A stretch of DNA of 11,187 bases from Chlamydiota bacterium (lineage in GTDB: Bacteria > Auribacterota > Tritonobacteria > UBA1439), in contig JBAXOY010000096.1 of assembly GCA_037133055.1 (NCBI GenBank), forward strand, positions 1 through 11,187. Reading direction: 5' to 3'. A program made the position numbers and the translations under genes. Under the pieces are notes generated by a model. It was not told the origin of the DNA. It ran no database searches and saw only the letters and a list, made by a program, of their open reading frames with translations. The stretch's first letter is position 1. Each line of letters begins with the position of its first letter. Positions 1 to 8,685 of this stretch are shown here, in pieces.

Positions 1-1088
1 AGGAGTCCTTCGATCGAACTGCCCCCGTCGATGCCCGCCCTGACGCCCCCGCAGGTGTAGTGGGCGGCGGGGACGACCGGGATCGGCTCCCTCGTCATGT
101 CGAAGCCGAACTCGAGGCACTTCTCGTAGATCGTGGGGAAGCGGGAGAGGATGAAGTCGCGGCCCCGGTGCGTGATGTCGAGGAGGGCGTGCTCCGCGCC
201 CGATGTCTTGATCTCGTTGTCGATCGCCCGCGCGACGATGTCGCGGGGGGCGAGCTCGCGGTCGGGGTGGTACTTCGCCATGAACGGCTCTCCGCCCGCG
301 AGCCGCAGGATCCCGCCCTCCCCGCGCACCGCCTCGGAGATGAGGAAGCTCTTCGCCTTCGGGTGGTAGAGGCAGGTCGGGTGGAACTGGATGAACTCCA
401 TGTTCGCGATCTCCGCCCCCGCGCGGTACGCCATCGCGACGCCGTCGCCGGTGGCGATGTCCGGGTTGCTCGTGTAGAGGTACGCCTTGCCCGCCCCTCC
501 CGTCGCGAGGACCGTGAGCCGGGCCGAGATCGGCGAAATGACCCCCGTCGACCTGTCCAGGACGTAGGCCCCCGCGCATCGGCCGGGGTCTTTCCTGTCG
601 CCGGCGATCTTTCCGGTGGTGACCAGGTCGACGGCGATGTGGTCCTCGAGGATGGAGATGTTCCTCTGTTCCGCCGCCCGCGCCAGGAGCGTTTCCTCGA
701 TTTCGCGCCCGGTGCAGTCCGAGGCGTGGACGACCCGGCGGGCGGAGTGGCCGCCCTCGCGCCCGAGGTCGAAGCCCCCCGCCGCGTCGCGCGAGAAACC
801 AGCCCCGAGGCCCGAGAGCCATTCGATGGCCCGCGGGCCGCCCCCGACGACCTCCTCGACCGCCGCCCGGTTGCAGAGGCCGTCGCCGGCGGCGAGCGTG
901 TCGCGGACGTGGGCCTCGAACGAGTCGGGGGGCGAGAGGACGGCGGCGATGCCGCCCTGGGCGTAGAGGGTGTTGGACTCGGACTTCTCCCTCTTGGCGA
1001 GAACGGTGACCCGGGCGAACGGTGCGCACCTCAACGCGTAGGAGAGGCCCGCGATGCCTCCTCCGATCACGAGGATGTCGGTTTCCAT
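1..1088 (-). CDS. nadB: L-aspartate oxidase (5' part; continues beyond the left edge)
   Basis: Not in the ORF track because it has no stop in the window. Manual translation from ATG (cat at 1086-1088) gives [32 protein letters not shown]...[13 protein letters not shown], then [55 protein letters not shown] and PAAHYTCGG. These are the FAD-binding and active-site motifs of NadB. Confidence 0.95.
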
Positions 1089-1169
1089 GGCCCCATGGTA
1101 GCGGCCTTTGCGGGGCGTGTCAACGACGGGGCGCACCCGCGGGGTGCAACCCGCCCGCGGCGAATCTGG
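1048..1169 (+). repeat. Left copy of 122-bp direct repeat (partner 3292-3413)
   Basis: Manual alignment at offset 2244 gives 120/122 identical (T1088/C3332, A1126/G3370). Confidence 0.97.
1095..1123 (-). promoter_or_regulatory. sigma70-type promoter of nadB (TTGACA-N17-TACCAT), probably leaderless
   Basis: The minus strand reads TTGACA(1123-1118) cgccccgcaaaggccgc(17 nt) TACCAT(1100-1095) ggggcc ATG. The -10 is 6 nt from the start codon, leaving no room for a transcribed Shine-Dalgarno. Confidence 0.8.
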
Positions 1170-1173
1170 ACTG

Positions 1174-1298
1174 CAAACAGGGAGCATGCTGAATCCGTAA
1201 TCCCGCTTGACAGCCCCTATGGCTCGAAGAATATCTGTGTGTACTTCAAACAGGGAGCATACTGAATCCGCAATCCCTCATTAACAGCCCCTACGGCT
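1174..1298 (+). repeat. Imperfect direct repeat pair, 1174-1224 and 1247-1298
   Basis: caaacagggagcatgctgaatccgtaatcccgc-ttgacagcccctatggct versus caaacagggagcatactgaatccgcaatccctcattaacagcccctacggct: 46/52 identical, with 5 substitutions and 1 indel. Confidence 0.93.
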
Positions 1299-3142
1299 TC
1301 CGGCCTTGCGGATAATATTTCAGTTAATATGTTTTGATGCCCGTACGAGTTTTTTGTTAAAAAAATCCCATAGCCTTGATATATTGACATTTTCTGATGT
1401 TCGCTGAAGTGATTCGTGAAATCTATAAATTTAGGCGCCGTTTTTAATTTCCACATCGCCATGTAGCCAATTCCCTCTCCGCAAAGCTCTTGATCTCTCC
1501 TCGAAAAGGCATTTATAACCTCTTTAAGCATAGCAGGCTGATTTTCACATAGCCAAAACGCTGCATAAACTCCCAGCGCTCGTATCATTTCATCATGATT
1601 CTGATCAGGTGTAAAATGAGGCAGTGCAGAGGTTAGTGCTCGTATTTGTTGCTGCATAGACTCGGCATCTTTAGCGCGTATATAATCATCTCTGCCATAC
1701 CCGGCAAACCACTCGGCAAACCCCATTTTAATGTCATTTGATTCCTGTGCATTATAATGATGAGGCAACTCTGCGAGTAGTGCCTTGCATAGTGCAGGTG
1801 AATTCCTGTAGTTCATAGTTATCATAGCACCAAGCCACCAATAGTTTGTTCCCGAAGCCCGGCCCCGCCCCGTGTCCACCGGATCCAAAATCGATAATGT
1901 GCCTTTCATGCCGGCTAAAATTGTTGTTGCCAGCAAGAATATACCTATCAAGCGTAATGGCATTGTAGTGATACCATTCCTATGCGATTTGATAAGATTC
2001 GAGATTCCAAGGGCTATTACGATAAAATAAATTGGATAGAGCCTGATAAGATACGGGCCACGTTGCCAAAAACCAACAAGCGGGGAAACGTGCCAACTAA
2101 AAGAAAACATATGGACCAAAGGAAAGATCAATACATATCCGAGTATGACACTTTTTGCATCATCATTCTCTGATCTTCTCAGACTACGGGAGGGAATCAA
2201 GAAGTGCCGGAGAGAGAGTAAAGTAACCACATAGCACAACCAGAAAGTGGCGAGAAGCCCCCCCCCCCACAAATAACTGCCTTTGTAACAAAACGAATCA
2301 TATATTCCTCTGGTAGCTGCAACAAAAAAATTCCGAATCGCATCATAAAGCGTAGGGGATTTGATGATACAGTTTATTATACCCGTAAATCTAAATAAGA
2401 ATGTCAGATCAAGTTCATATGAATACATCAGGAGTGGGCTAAGCCCCAATAATAAGCACGGGAAGACCAAAATCCAATTCCAATCCTTCCATGTGCGCCA
2501 ATTATAGATGGTGACAAACATGATGATGATAGCACTGCTGAACAACATCGTCGGCAATATGAAATAGCCAAGCCCGCAGGTCAACCCAACTCCAATTATG
2601 AGCAACCTCCTGATACTCTCTTTTGGTCGCTCAATAATATGAACAAAAAGCGTGAGGAGGAGAAGGTCGAGGTACCCTATGAGATTATGATGTCCGGTAG
2701 CTAATACTGAAGAAATGATATCGCCGGGGAAAGAAAGAATCGAAAATACATAAAAAAGCCTTGCAGCCAGAGGGCCAAAATATTTTCCGAGCAGGTGGAT
2801 CACAAGCCAGACATTCAACACCGAGAATACGAGTGCTGAAAGCTTCAGGCTAAGATGACAATCGCCAAGCAATAGATAATACGGGGCCGCAAACAAACCT
2901 ATAAGATACGGTCCCCCTTCACCTATGACATAATGATAACAATAAATGGGTTGAAGCCTCCCCCACGCAATATCTTTGGCAAGGTTACCGGCAACGAGCT
3001 CTTCACAGGTGCCTATTTGATATACTTGACGGGAGAGAAGTAGCACCATTAGCCTGGCCGCACTATAAAGAAAAAGCGCGATACAGACTTCAATATGGCG
3101 AAGAGAGCGATTATGGATTTTTATATATGGCGTGCTCATCAT
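1217..3142 (-). CDS. Polytopic membrane protein, probable GT-C superfamily glycosyltransferase (ArnT/PMT-like, GT39/GT83-like) with a soluble helical C-terminal region
   Basis: 641-aa ORF in AT-rich DNA. The N-terminal ~420 aa carry about 10-12 hydrophobic segments. An acidic pair follows TM1 (GTCEELVAG), then [31 protein letters not shown], resembling the P-L...LFG.S..SLRL pattern of ArnT/PMT_2 proteins. The C-terminal ~200 aa are hydrophilic. The ORF itself is near certain; the family is inferred. Confidence 0.65.
2258..2268 (-). repeat. G11 homopolymer tract in the cargo coding strand
   Basis: The plus strand has 11 consecutive C. The coding strand TGG GGG GGG GGG CTT gives WGGGL and is currently in frame. 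Confidence 0.9.
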
Positions 3143-3158
3143 CCGATGGAGGGTCTAC

Positions 3159-3187
3159 ATCTTATATATACCTGAAACCTGCGTGAA
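3159..3187 (-). promoter_or_regulatory. Possible native promoter of the cargo gene (TTCACG-N17-TAAGAT)
   Basis: The minus strand has TTCACG(3187-3182), 17 nt, then TAAGAT(3164-3159), 16 nt upstream of the ATG at 3142. The AT-rich context makes chance matches likely. Confidence 0.35.
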
Positions 3188-3230
3188 TATCCGTTGTTAC
3201 GACAATGAATATGCCAAAAAAAGCCAAGAA

Positions 3231-3332
3231 TTACAAAGGAAGTATATCCCCGCCAAGATCATAGTGCCAGATTTTTCCGGATTTTTCCAATCCCGCGATG
3301 CCTCCTCCGATCACGAGGATGTCGGTTTCCAC
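3231..3332 (-). pseudogene. Duplicated nadB 5' fragment forming a 33-codon chimeric mini-ORF
   Basis: GTG start, (M)[14 protein letters not shown] then EKSGKIWHYDLGGDILPL*. The first 15 residues equal the NadB N-terminus. Confidence 0.75.
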
Positions 3333-3413
3333 GGCCCCATGGTAGCGGCCTTTGCGGGGCGTGTCAACGGCGGGGCGCACCCGCGGGGTGCAACCCGCCC
3401 GCGGCGAATCTGG
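3292..3413 (+). repeat. Right copy of 122-bp direct repeat (partner 1048-1169)
   Basis: Same alignment. It contains the first ~13 nadB codons (ATG changed to GTG) and the nadB promoter, and abuts the uvrA -10 box. Confidence 0.97.
3339..3367 (-). promoter_or_regulatory. Second intact copy of the nadB promoter, pointing into the cargo gene
   Basis: Identical to 1095-1123 (TTGACA-N17-TACCAT). Both repeat mismatches fall outside it. Confidence 0.75.
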
Positions 3414-3419
3414 TATACT
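3411..3419 (+). promoter_or_regulatory. Extended -10 promoter of uvrA (TGgTATACT), probably leaderless
   Basis: TG-n-TATACT ends 7 nt before the ATG at 3427. There is no SD sequence and no convincing -35 at 17 nt. Confidence 0.7.
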
Positions 3420-3426
3420 GTCGGTC

Positions 3427-6303
<2,877 letters not shown>

Positions 6304-7522: not shown

Positions 7523-8596
7523 ATGATCAAGATACTCGACCGCTACCTCGTCCGCGAATTCCTCATCCCGCTCTGCTACTGCCTCGCGGCGTTCATACTG
7601 ATCTACGTCATCTATGACCTCTCCGCCCACCTCGACAACTACATCGAGGACCGGGTGCCCATGCGGTTCCTGATCCAGTACTACGTCATCCAGATGCCGC
7701 TCGTCATGGTGCAGGTCATCCCCCTCTCCATCCTCCTCGCGATCGTCTACTGCCTGGGCGCCCTGAGCCGCCACAACGAGATCACCGCGATGCGCGCCAA
7801 CGGCATCAGCGTCTACCGCATCATGCTGCCCTATTTCATCCTGGGCGTGGGCTTCACCGCGTTCATCTTCTATCTGAACGACCGGCACGCCCCGCGGGCG
7901 TACGAGGAATCGAAGAAGTTCCTCGATGACGCCCGCGGCGGGAAGCCCGAGGAGAAGATGCGCCCGCTCGCCTTCTTCAACTCGAAGGAGGGGCGGGCGT
8001 GGGCGGGGCAGTGGAAGCCGTCGGGCGACCTGCTCCAGAACGTCTCGGTGCGGAGCTTCCAGAACGGGCAGGTGGTCGAGACGATCTCCTCGTCGAAGGC
8101 GTCGTACCTCGACCAGGAATGGTGGTTCTTCGACGGCTCCATCCAGCGGTACGATTCGAAGGGGCGGGCCCGAGGGAGCGAGGAGGCGTTCAGCAAGCGC
8201 CGCTTCCCGTTCGGCGAAAAGCCCGAGGATTTTCTGAGCAGCCAGAAGGAGTCGCTCTCCATGAGCCTCGCGGAGCTCTGGCGGAACATGGCCCTCTATC
8301 CACGGGACTCCGATATCTACGGCAAGAAGCTCGTGGACCTCCACTACAAGATCGCCTTCCCGTTCGTCGGCATCACGATCGTGCTCATCGCGGTGCCCCT
8401 CGCCATCAAGACGACGCGGGGCGGCGCCGCGGGGAGCGCGGGCCTGAGCATCGCCATCTGCATCTCCTACTATGTCGTCGGCATGGTGAGCCTCTCGCTC
8501 GGGCACGGAGGGCACCTGCCCGCGTGGCTCGCGAGCTGGCTGCCCAACATCCTCTTCGGCGCGGCGGGGCTCGTGCTTCTGTACAGGAACAGATAG
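7523..8596 (+). CDS. lptG: LptF/LptG family LPS-export permease, LptG-like
   Basis: MIKILDRYL N-terminus, LSRHNEITAMRANGIS motif, KIAFPF...AVPL and LPAWLASWLPN C-terminal motif. An SD-like AGGAG/GAGG sequence overlaps the upstream stop. Confidence 0.88.
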   Translation: MIKILDRYLVREFLIPLCYCLAAFILIYVIYDLSAHLDNYIEDRVPMRFLIQYYVIQMPLVMVQVIPLSILLAIVYCLGALSRHNEITAMRANGISVYRIMLPYFILGVGFTAFIFYLNDRHAPRAYEESKKFLDDARGGKPEEKMRPLAFFNSKEGRAWAGQWKPSGDLLQNVSVRSFQNGQVVETISSSKASYLDQEWWFFDGSIQRYDSKGRARGSEEAFSKRRFPFGEKPEDFLSSQKESLSMSLAELWRNMALYPRDSDIYGKKLVDLHYKIAFPFVGITIVLIAVPLAIKTTRGGAAGSAGLSIAICISYYVVGMVSLSLGHGGHLPAWLASWLPNILFGAAGLVLLYRNR

Positions 8597-8685
8597 CGAT
8601 CGAGCGATCGAGCGATCGAGCTATCGAGCTATCGAGCTATCGAGCTATCGAGCTATCGAGATATCGAGCTATCGAGATATCGAGC
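8595..8685 (+). repeat. 8-bp tandem repeat, 11 units plus 3 nt
   Basis: (AGCGATCG)x3 (AGCTATCG)x5 AGATATCG AGCTATCG AGATATCG AGC, starting inside the lptG stop codon. Confidence 0.97.

Follow-up and report, generated by a model that had tools for sequence, protein, structure and literature searches.

A foreign glycosyltransferase-like gene between duplicated copies of the nadB-uvrA promoter region in an uncultured bacterium of the Auribacterota

The stretch of DNA analysed here, henceforth the window, is the entire 11,187-bp contig C96 (JBAXOY010000096.1) of G000, a metagenome-assembled genome from the lineage UBA1439 (2.99 Mb, 64% GC, 92% complete). Between the divergent genes nadB and uvrA it carries a foreign insert with a single gene for a membrane glycosyltransferase-like protein, bracketed by two 122-bp direct copies of the host promoter region. 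The insertion is real, recent and well preserved, and it belongs to a known class whose mechanism is unsettled, the insertion with long target duplication; its cargo is unusual, and it has captured a promoter. Sequence comparison confirms what an earlier sequence-only reading of the window had described, namely a 2122-bp AT-rich one-gene insert between 122-bp repeats with 2 mismatches.

The insert and the duplicated promoter region

The repeats (1048-1169 and 3292-3413) occur in two copies only and are unique in the assembly. They differ at 1088 T/3332 C, where the nadB start codon is ATG in one copy and GTG in the other, and at 1126 A/3370 G. The insert contains one long open reading frame (ORF), which encodes 641 residues. 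Nothing in the insert matches a recombinase, transposase or mobility family in Pfam or NCBIfam, no integrase was found on the contig, and the insert ends contain no terminal inverted repeats (longest match 3 bp); the sequence-only reading had seen none of these either, and profile and terminal-match searches leave that description standing. The features around the insert, including the remnant of an insertion sequence (IS), are as follows.

1-1088, minus strand: nadB-like FAD oxidoreductase (Pfam FAD_binding_2, E 3e-81), which we take to be nadB from its family and the label in the sequence-only reading; ATG at 1088 intact; runs off the contig end
1048-1169: repeat copy 1, made up of nadB nt 1-41 and 81 nt of intergenic DNA between nadB and uvrA
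1095-1123, minus strand: sigma70-type promoter of nadB, predicted by consensus (TTGACA-17-TACCAT, 10/12 consensus matches)
1167-1298: internal duplication of the cargo gene 3' end (1167-1224 versus 1240-1298, 59 bp, 86% identical), reaching the left junction
1170-3291: foreign insert, 2122 bp, GC 0.43 versus 0.71 in the flanks; present in neither the congener G002 nor G004
1217-3142, minus strand: cargo gene, GT-C-fold membrane glycosyltransferase-like protein (predicted), 641 aa; roughly 10 segments are hydrophobic, residues 47-48 are a conserved Glu-Glu pair and the C-terminal domain is helical
3170-3234: non-coding element, 65 bp, 94% identical to a gene-upstream region in G007 of the same family
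3231-3332, minus strand: mini-ORF of 33 codons, nadB codons 1-14 (GTG start) fused to the insert; its stop lies 88 nt before the cargo gene
3240-3269, minus strand: IS-end remnant, 30 bp; 29/30 positions agree with the inner part of the right end of a multicopy G003 IS, whose terminal repeat is not present here
3292-3413: repeat copy 2; one contig of sequencing run X7 joins both its flanks
3339-3367, minus strand: second copy of the nadB promoter, with the same consensus match, facing the cargo gene
3411-3419, plus strand: putative extended -10 element of uvrA (TG-n-TATACT), presumed from the motif; TATACT is conserved in G002
3427-6303, plus strand: uvrA, intact (Pfam UvrA_inter, UvrA_DNA-bind)

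Given that the full predicted nadB promoter lies within repeat copy 2, a host promoter is now aimed into the cargo gene by way of the mini-ORF. No terminator-like site was found ahead of nadB, and the layout suggests that transcripts starting at the duplicated nadB promoter would cover the cargo and read through into nadB. The putative uvrA -10 hexamer starts one base past copy 2, directly after TG-n, so that only copy 2 retains the element and copy 1 lacks it. Thus, the promoter and start layout of the two copies bears out the earlier claim that both flanking host genes keep their promoters, and the event probably survived because its boundaries leave both of them working. The nadB start lies 6 nt past its -10, which makes a leaderless nadB mRNA likely; the starts of nadB (1088) and uvrA (3427) both stand 6-7 nt past their putative -10 elements, suggesting leaderless mRNAs on a divergent promoter. 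The repeat also contains a palindrome, GCACCC-GCG-GGGTGC (1134-1148 and 3378-3392), within a 30-bp stretch missing from G002, which might be an operator or a small insertion.

We compared the nadB-uvrA locus with that of seven other genomes of the family. The congener G002 (about 80-81% identical) has nadB and uvrA separated by a single copy of the target, an empty site of the kind that the sequence-only reading had proposed to look for, and in G004 the gap likewise lacks the cargo. Unrelated genes for secreted proteins occupy the gap in G003 and G005, without an integrase or a target duplication, and G007 has a large secreted protein upstream of uvrA on a contig that ends before nadB. G006, in which the two genes are adjacent with both 5' ends missing, and G001, in which they are unlinked, were not counted. 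The window thus records a gain of DNA in the G000 lineage, in a gap where cargo is frequently found. The gaps of G003, G005 and G007 hold different large secreted proteins, as at a recurrent insertion spot. No integrase was found in the gap in G002 to G005, and the larger integrase-bearing element that might have made the insert a decayed remnant is therefore missing from this gap in relatives. A metagenome scan for other alleles at the locus returned one contig; at 99.96% identity to the empty site of G002 it is not independent. Nothing other than the present cargo was found between these repeats.

Eight public sequencing runs (X1-X8) were examined as short-k contigs, which overlap by 30 bases where they branch, indicating k=31. 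The junction at 1169/1170 is crossed by at least 31 bases on each side in X3, X4 and X6, and that at 3291/3292 in X2, X3, X4, X5, X6 and X7, from five studies. One X7 contig covers the insert, the whole of copy 2 and uvrA with zero mismatches and with the copy-2 alleles; X1, maybe the source sample, extends only 30 bases into the repeat. That the contig is a chimera of host and foreign DNA is scarcely credible: although the window comes from a single metagenome-assembled genome and no listed contig spans the whole stretch, both new junctions are bridged in runs from at least four studies, as the sequence-only reading had asked of a real insertion, and the X7 contig carries the insert into uvrA. 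Moreover, the two mismatches split the copies into identical blocks of only 40, 37 and 43 bp, which an assembly at larger k should resolve. The empty-site joint was seen in 0/8 runs, in contigs that drop rare variants.

Cargo protein and make-up of the insert

The cargo protein itself has no match in Pfam or NCBIfam, and a word-based protein search gave no homologues; a HMMER search recovered 226 at E<=0.001. The nearest full-length homologues are about 25% identical, and 13 of the 17 top full-length ones scanned match PMT_2 at E<=0.001. An AlphaFold2 model (pLDDT 85.9, pTM 0.89) retrieved from the PDB only GT-C enzymes among the 23 best-listed matches (AglB, ALG9, STT3, ArnT; best E 8e-4, TM about 0.4), and the Atlas features of the protein are consistent with GT-C. 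An acidic pair in the first external loop is conserved (E47 in 70/86 and E48 in 76/86 aligned sequences) and is presumably catalytic, as in the GT-C family. The reading frame is alignable to its end with a homologue. Together these observations indicate that the cargo gene is intact and that its product, as modelled, is of the GT-C fold. It shares with ArnT, the PMT_2 family, ALG9 and AglB/STT3 the multi-pass membrane fold and the acidic pair in the first outer loop, and differs from these known enzymes in its extra helical C-terminal domain and in having no Pfam match of its own.

Proteins of this family are native to the class, where paralogues share about 23% identity, and G000 has an unusually large GT-C repertoire for 3 Mb (49 PMT_2 and 4 GT87 matches). 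The GC content at third codon positions is 0.44 in the cargo gene versus 0.83 in a paralogue on contig C111. A further run from sediment, X12, contains four 151-nt pieces that are about 97% identical to the gene (window 1321-2707) but no near-identical nadB or uvrA, which suggests that the gene exists in another background and in a possible donor lineage.

The sequence-only reading had overlooked both the IS-end remnant and the internal duplication. The former belongs to the 149-bp leader of the insert, a patchwork of segments from genomes of the same family, and sits 22 bp inside from repeat copy 2. The G003 IS that it matches has a terminal motif or repeat of 16-17 bp with 22 motif matches in G003, at contig ends, its interior being unassembled; no full copy was found in genome contigs, viral contigs or the 79 phylum genomes scanned. 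Its flanks show one 7-bp pairing and no long duplication. A related IS end in G048 precedes an ISNCY-like transposase that scores below the cut-off, and ISNCY is thus a lead only. As regards the internal duplication, its 86% identity, against 98% between the host repeats, indicates that it is the older of the two.

Recurrence of the layout in the genome

A self-comparison of G000 yielded 100 repeat pairs, of which 38 are unique and 22 sharp-edged. Seven of these 22 were kept and C41, C22 and C11 added by hand, giving ten hand-picked loci, on contigs C96, C6, C11, C12, C22, C41, C83, C86, C87 and C111. The sequence-only reading had suggested scanning the genome for the same architecture, and about ten loci indeed show it. 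They combine unrelated repeats of 36-321 bp with unrelated inserts of 0.7-3.0 kb; we found neither a shared junction motif (best cross-locus junction match 11 bp) nor terminal inverted repeats (longest terminal match 2-4 bp). Clear empty sites in relatives exist at four loci, C6, C41, C11 and C96. The search covered eight of the other nine loci, giving partial support at C111 and C22 and no synteny at C12, C86 and C83, with C87 outside it. The cargo is GT-C-like at four loci (C96, C12, C22 and C86), a methyltransferase at two, and an oxidase with a cut sulfatase at one; the remaining three carry a toxin-antitoxin system, a KAP NTPase or rhodanese/NMT1-like genes. The duplicated target is the 3' end of a gene at seven loci, a 5' coding part at C41 and ambiguous at C83, and only at C96 among the ten does it include a promoter.

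Several of these loci are informative on their own. At C111 (L059, 942-1262 and 3483-3803) the 3' half of a transaldolase gene is duplicated over 321 bp, with 303 identical bases before four differences; the intact transaldolase now ends differently from that of relatives, and the cargo sulfatase is truncated at the junction, which indicates that the insert ends are arbitrary. At C111, C41 and C6 one junction runs in register into an orthologue-like gene end. At C12 (L060, 2879-4504) an IS3/IS481-like element ends 23 bp from copy 2; this element is 95% identical to copies in G003, a member of another genus, which indicates recent exchange within the family. At C22 (L061, 3598-3902), where the duplication measures 100 bp, a 197-bp dispersed repeat that is abundant in G003 interrupts copy 2. 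A layout like that of the window was seen once in 382 kb of glycan-rich DNA of relatives, on contig C75 of G008 (L157, 9033-9167 and 13697-13831), where a 135-bp duplication of a promoter and start codon (97.8% identical) surrounds 4.5 kb of cargo with sulfatase-HEAT and methyltransferase genes.

Of the 22 sharp-edged pairs, 15 were dropped. Among them are a tRNA-end repeat (C70), intragenic or paralogue repeats (C2 at 63323, C5 and two on C24), REP-like repeats (C32, C90), two repeats on C7 that surround small genes we take to be of the BrnT/BrnA families, a contig-end case (C130) and a pair on C29 whose copy 2 follows native DNA. The other four of the 15 are C2 at 25496, C53, C74 and C80. 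In G007 a 140-bp repeat on C118 is a palindromic element and not a target duplication.

As a chance control, repeats of at least 28 bp bracket 5 of 300 random intervals of host GC, mostly through 29-31-bp matches. Low-GC islands are bracketed more often (7/68, p 0.002), though only 3 of those 7 are host-target duplications, and these 3/68 compared with the unfiltered control give p 0.17. Within this small, hand-picked sample the cargo does lean towards glycan genes, which may simply mirror the accessory genome.

Side observations outside these loci include an 8-bp unit (AGCTATCG-type) repeated in tandem about 11 times directly after lptG in the window (8595-8685), and a CRISPR-like array with 36-bp repeats and a period of about 70 bp on contig C8 of G002 (L164, 1-2211).

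Origin of the insertion and relation to known systems

Insertions with long target duplication were reportedly described by Nobusato et al. as early as 2000. Furuta, Abe and Kobayashi (2010) define the class, with repeats of 24-423 bp in their Table 3, by criteria that include a duplication above 30 bp, an insert below 20 kb, no mobile gene and a unique repeat, a start or stop codon often being spanned (PMC2853133). The corresponding findings at C96 are a unique 122-bp duplication, a 2122-bp insert with no mobile gene, an empty site and a spanned start codon; the lower GC, the empty site in a relative and the surviving host gene are likewise common to both. The sequence-only reading had offered, as one option, an unknown insertion route that duplicates a long target; such insertions had in fact already been described under this name (PMC2853133). 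The 2010 cases have restriction-modification (RM) genes as cargo, with DNA breakage by the cargo invoked, whereas the cargo of C96 is glycosyltransferase-like and includes no nuclease. Its GT-C fold places C96 outside the RM subset, RM being the search criterion of that study and not a claimed limit of the process. A statement in Lim et al. (2012) extends the pattern to 'other DNAs' besides RM genes (PMC3457768), and the supplements of PMC2853133 may hold further non-RM cases. A literature search, with most subscription papers outside its reach, found no report of this pattern for GT-C genes.

Other systems share parts of the layout. Integrase islands duplicate their att sites; C96 has no integrase in or beside the element, and no common att core exists over the ten loci. 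Long and variable target duplications are also made by some IS elements, such as IS1634 and IS1549. IS1630 is named among such elements as well (PMC2853133), and C96 differs from them in that its ends show no terminal inverted repeats or transposase. An IS of this type was rejected as the source of the insert, both for that reason and because the one IS trace is tied to a 7-bp flank pairing. The unconventional circularizable structures described by Palmieri et al. (2013), for which circles were shown by PCR, resemble C96 in holding cargo between direct repeats capable of loop-out, without a recombinase gene (PMC7843796); their repeats are far longer and lie mostly in mobile elements with resistance genes, whereas the C96 repeat is a 122-bp housekeeping promoter. 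Also described are an interchromatid route to duplications during transformation (PMC3784515) and, in the relevant part of a haloarchaeal study, mainly short repeat-mediated deletions (PMC3119063).

We propose, as the somewhat more probable account, that host recombination through a circle produced the insertion with its 122-bp target duplication. Free DNA from a lower-GC relative, with a host segment beside the foreign gene, would have been taken up and closed into a circle, and one crossover by the host RecA would have integrated it at the nadB-uvrA divergent promoter without a dedicated recombinase; recombination between the repeat copies would then remove the cassette cleanly. In E. coli, Amarir-Bouhram et al. 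(2011) obtained target duplications of 109-950 bp from one-sided homology, by RecA-dependent circle crossover in 56/60 clones (PMC3240628), and the duplications there vary without a site-specific enzyme, as at C96. This precedent in the size range, the variable repeats at unrelated targets and the in-register ends are why we would place the circle route first, with moderate confidence. One-sided homology predicts in-register, orthologue-like ends, which fits C111, C41 and C6. The genes comEC and dprA occur in 8/8 genomes of the family, and recA is present in G000.

Several points weigh against this account. The genes comEC and dprA are also widespread in control genomes (10/14 and 11/14), and hence do not demonstrate competence. 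Beyond the repeat the C96 junctions have no homology (5/18 and 4/18 identical bases), and the duplicated segment is host-like: its copies are 98% identical to each other and about 80% identical to the congener. The circle would therefore require a prior non-homologous junction within the same species. No donor with the cargo gene beside nadB or uvrA was found. Mismatch polarity at C6 misfits a single crossover, and over nine loci it shows no consistent single-crossover pattern. The E. coli events concerned conjugated plasmid DNA in the laboratory, at about 6e-9 per cell, and true homology-facilitated illegitimate recombination gave deletions there rather than duplications (PMC3240628). Lastly, joints of the kind expected for a circle occur in 2/8 runs, X4 (3291 to 1048) and X6 (3332 to 1089), with the outer flanks uncovered in both. 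When a linear template alone was assembled in simulation (k=31, 300 replicates per setting), such joints arose in 4.7-13% of low-depth graphs and in none at depth 11/8; 2 of 7 low-depth runs correspond to p 0.04-0.23 against the simulation. Since they fit the circle yet also arise in low-depth assembly, the X4 and X6 joints fall within the range of assembly artefacts, were rejected as evidence for a circle and are given no weight. The single-crossover circle suggested by the sequence-only reading is ranked first here too, by inference.

The absence of homology beyond the repeat at C96 is why a one-step chromosomal event stays a close rival, which we regard as a serious if doubtful possibility. 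Here a linear piece of foreign DNA would be captured at a staggered break or stalled fork, through end joining or a template switch, and resumption 122 bp upstream would duplicate the target without any circle. Both non-homologous junctions and both host-like copies at C96 suit such an event, as do the 303 identical bases that precede the four differences at C111 and the position of the internal duplication beside the left junction; double-strand breakage is moreover proposed as the common cause by Furuta et al. (PMC2853133). The internal duplication, however, is the older of the two by its 86% identity, the in-register ends at C111, C41 and C6 indicate use of homology, and our literature search found no experiment that yields this layout in such a way. 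It is quite improbable that the insert is instead what is left after the decay of an IS-mobilised unit, or of an integrase element whose att block was long, with loss of the enzyme gene. The IS-end remnant 22 bp inside copy 2, the similar position of the IS3-like element at C12 and 6 tyrosine-recombinase matches in the genome would agree with it; but repeats that are 98% identical allow little time for decay, the nadB-uvrA gap of relatives contains no integrase element, the genes there in G003 and G005 being unrelated and without target duplication, the G003 IS shows one 7-bp flank pairing and no long duplication, and the ten targets have no common core.

The sequence-only reading had further envisaged a genome-wide system for exchanging surface-glycosylation genes at housekeeping promoters; the version considered here is a dedicated one that works through circles flanked by repeats. 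GT-C-like cargo at 4/10 loci, methyltransferase or oxidase/sulfatase cargo at three more, the G008 promoter-plus-start duplication around sulfatase and methyltransferase genes and the circle-like joints in 2/8 runs could be read in its favour. Against this, repeats bracket just 3/56 GT-C profile matches (4/57 counting C86) in a genome rich in GT-C genes anyway, 61/68 interior low-GC islands have no bracketing repeat, 6/10 loci carry other cargo and C96 alone among the ten has its promoter duplicated. With no alternative cargo found between the C96 repeats and no motif shared by repeats or junctions, we consider such a system very improbable. A looser version, in which surface-glycan genes are taken up in this lineage from relatives, by ongoing and reversible insertion with long target duplication, and the cassette with its nadB promoter loops out as a 2244-bp circle, giving on/off or copy-number variation of a surface glycosyltransferase without a recombinase, is speculative and on balance rather unlikely.

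The class has been described since 2000 and its natural mechanism is unsettled. Because the organism is uncultured, the case widens the range of known examples more than it supplies a system ready for experiments. About ten such insertions, differing in age and carrying non-nuclease cargo, are present in G000; they argue that host recombination is enough and that cutting of DNA by the cargo is not required. C96 also illustrates how simply an incoming gene can obtain a host promoter as it inserts.

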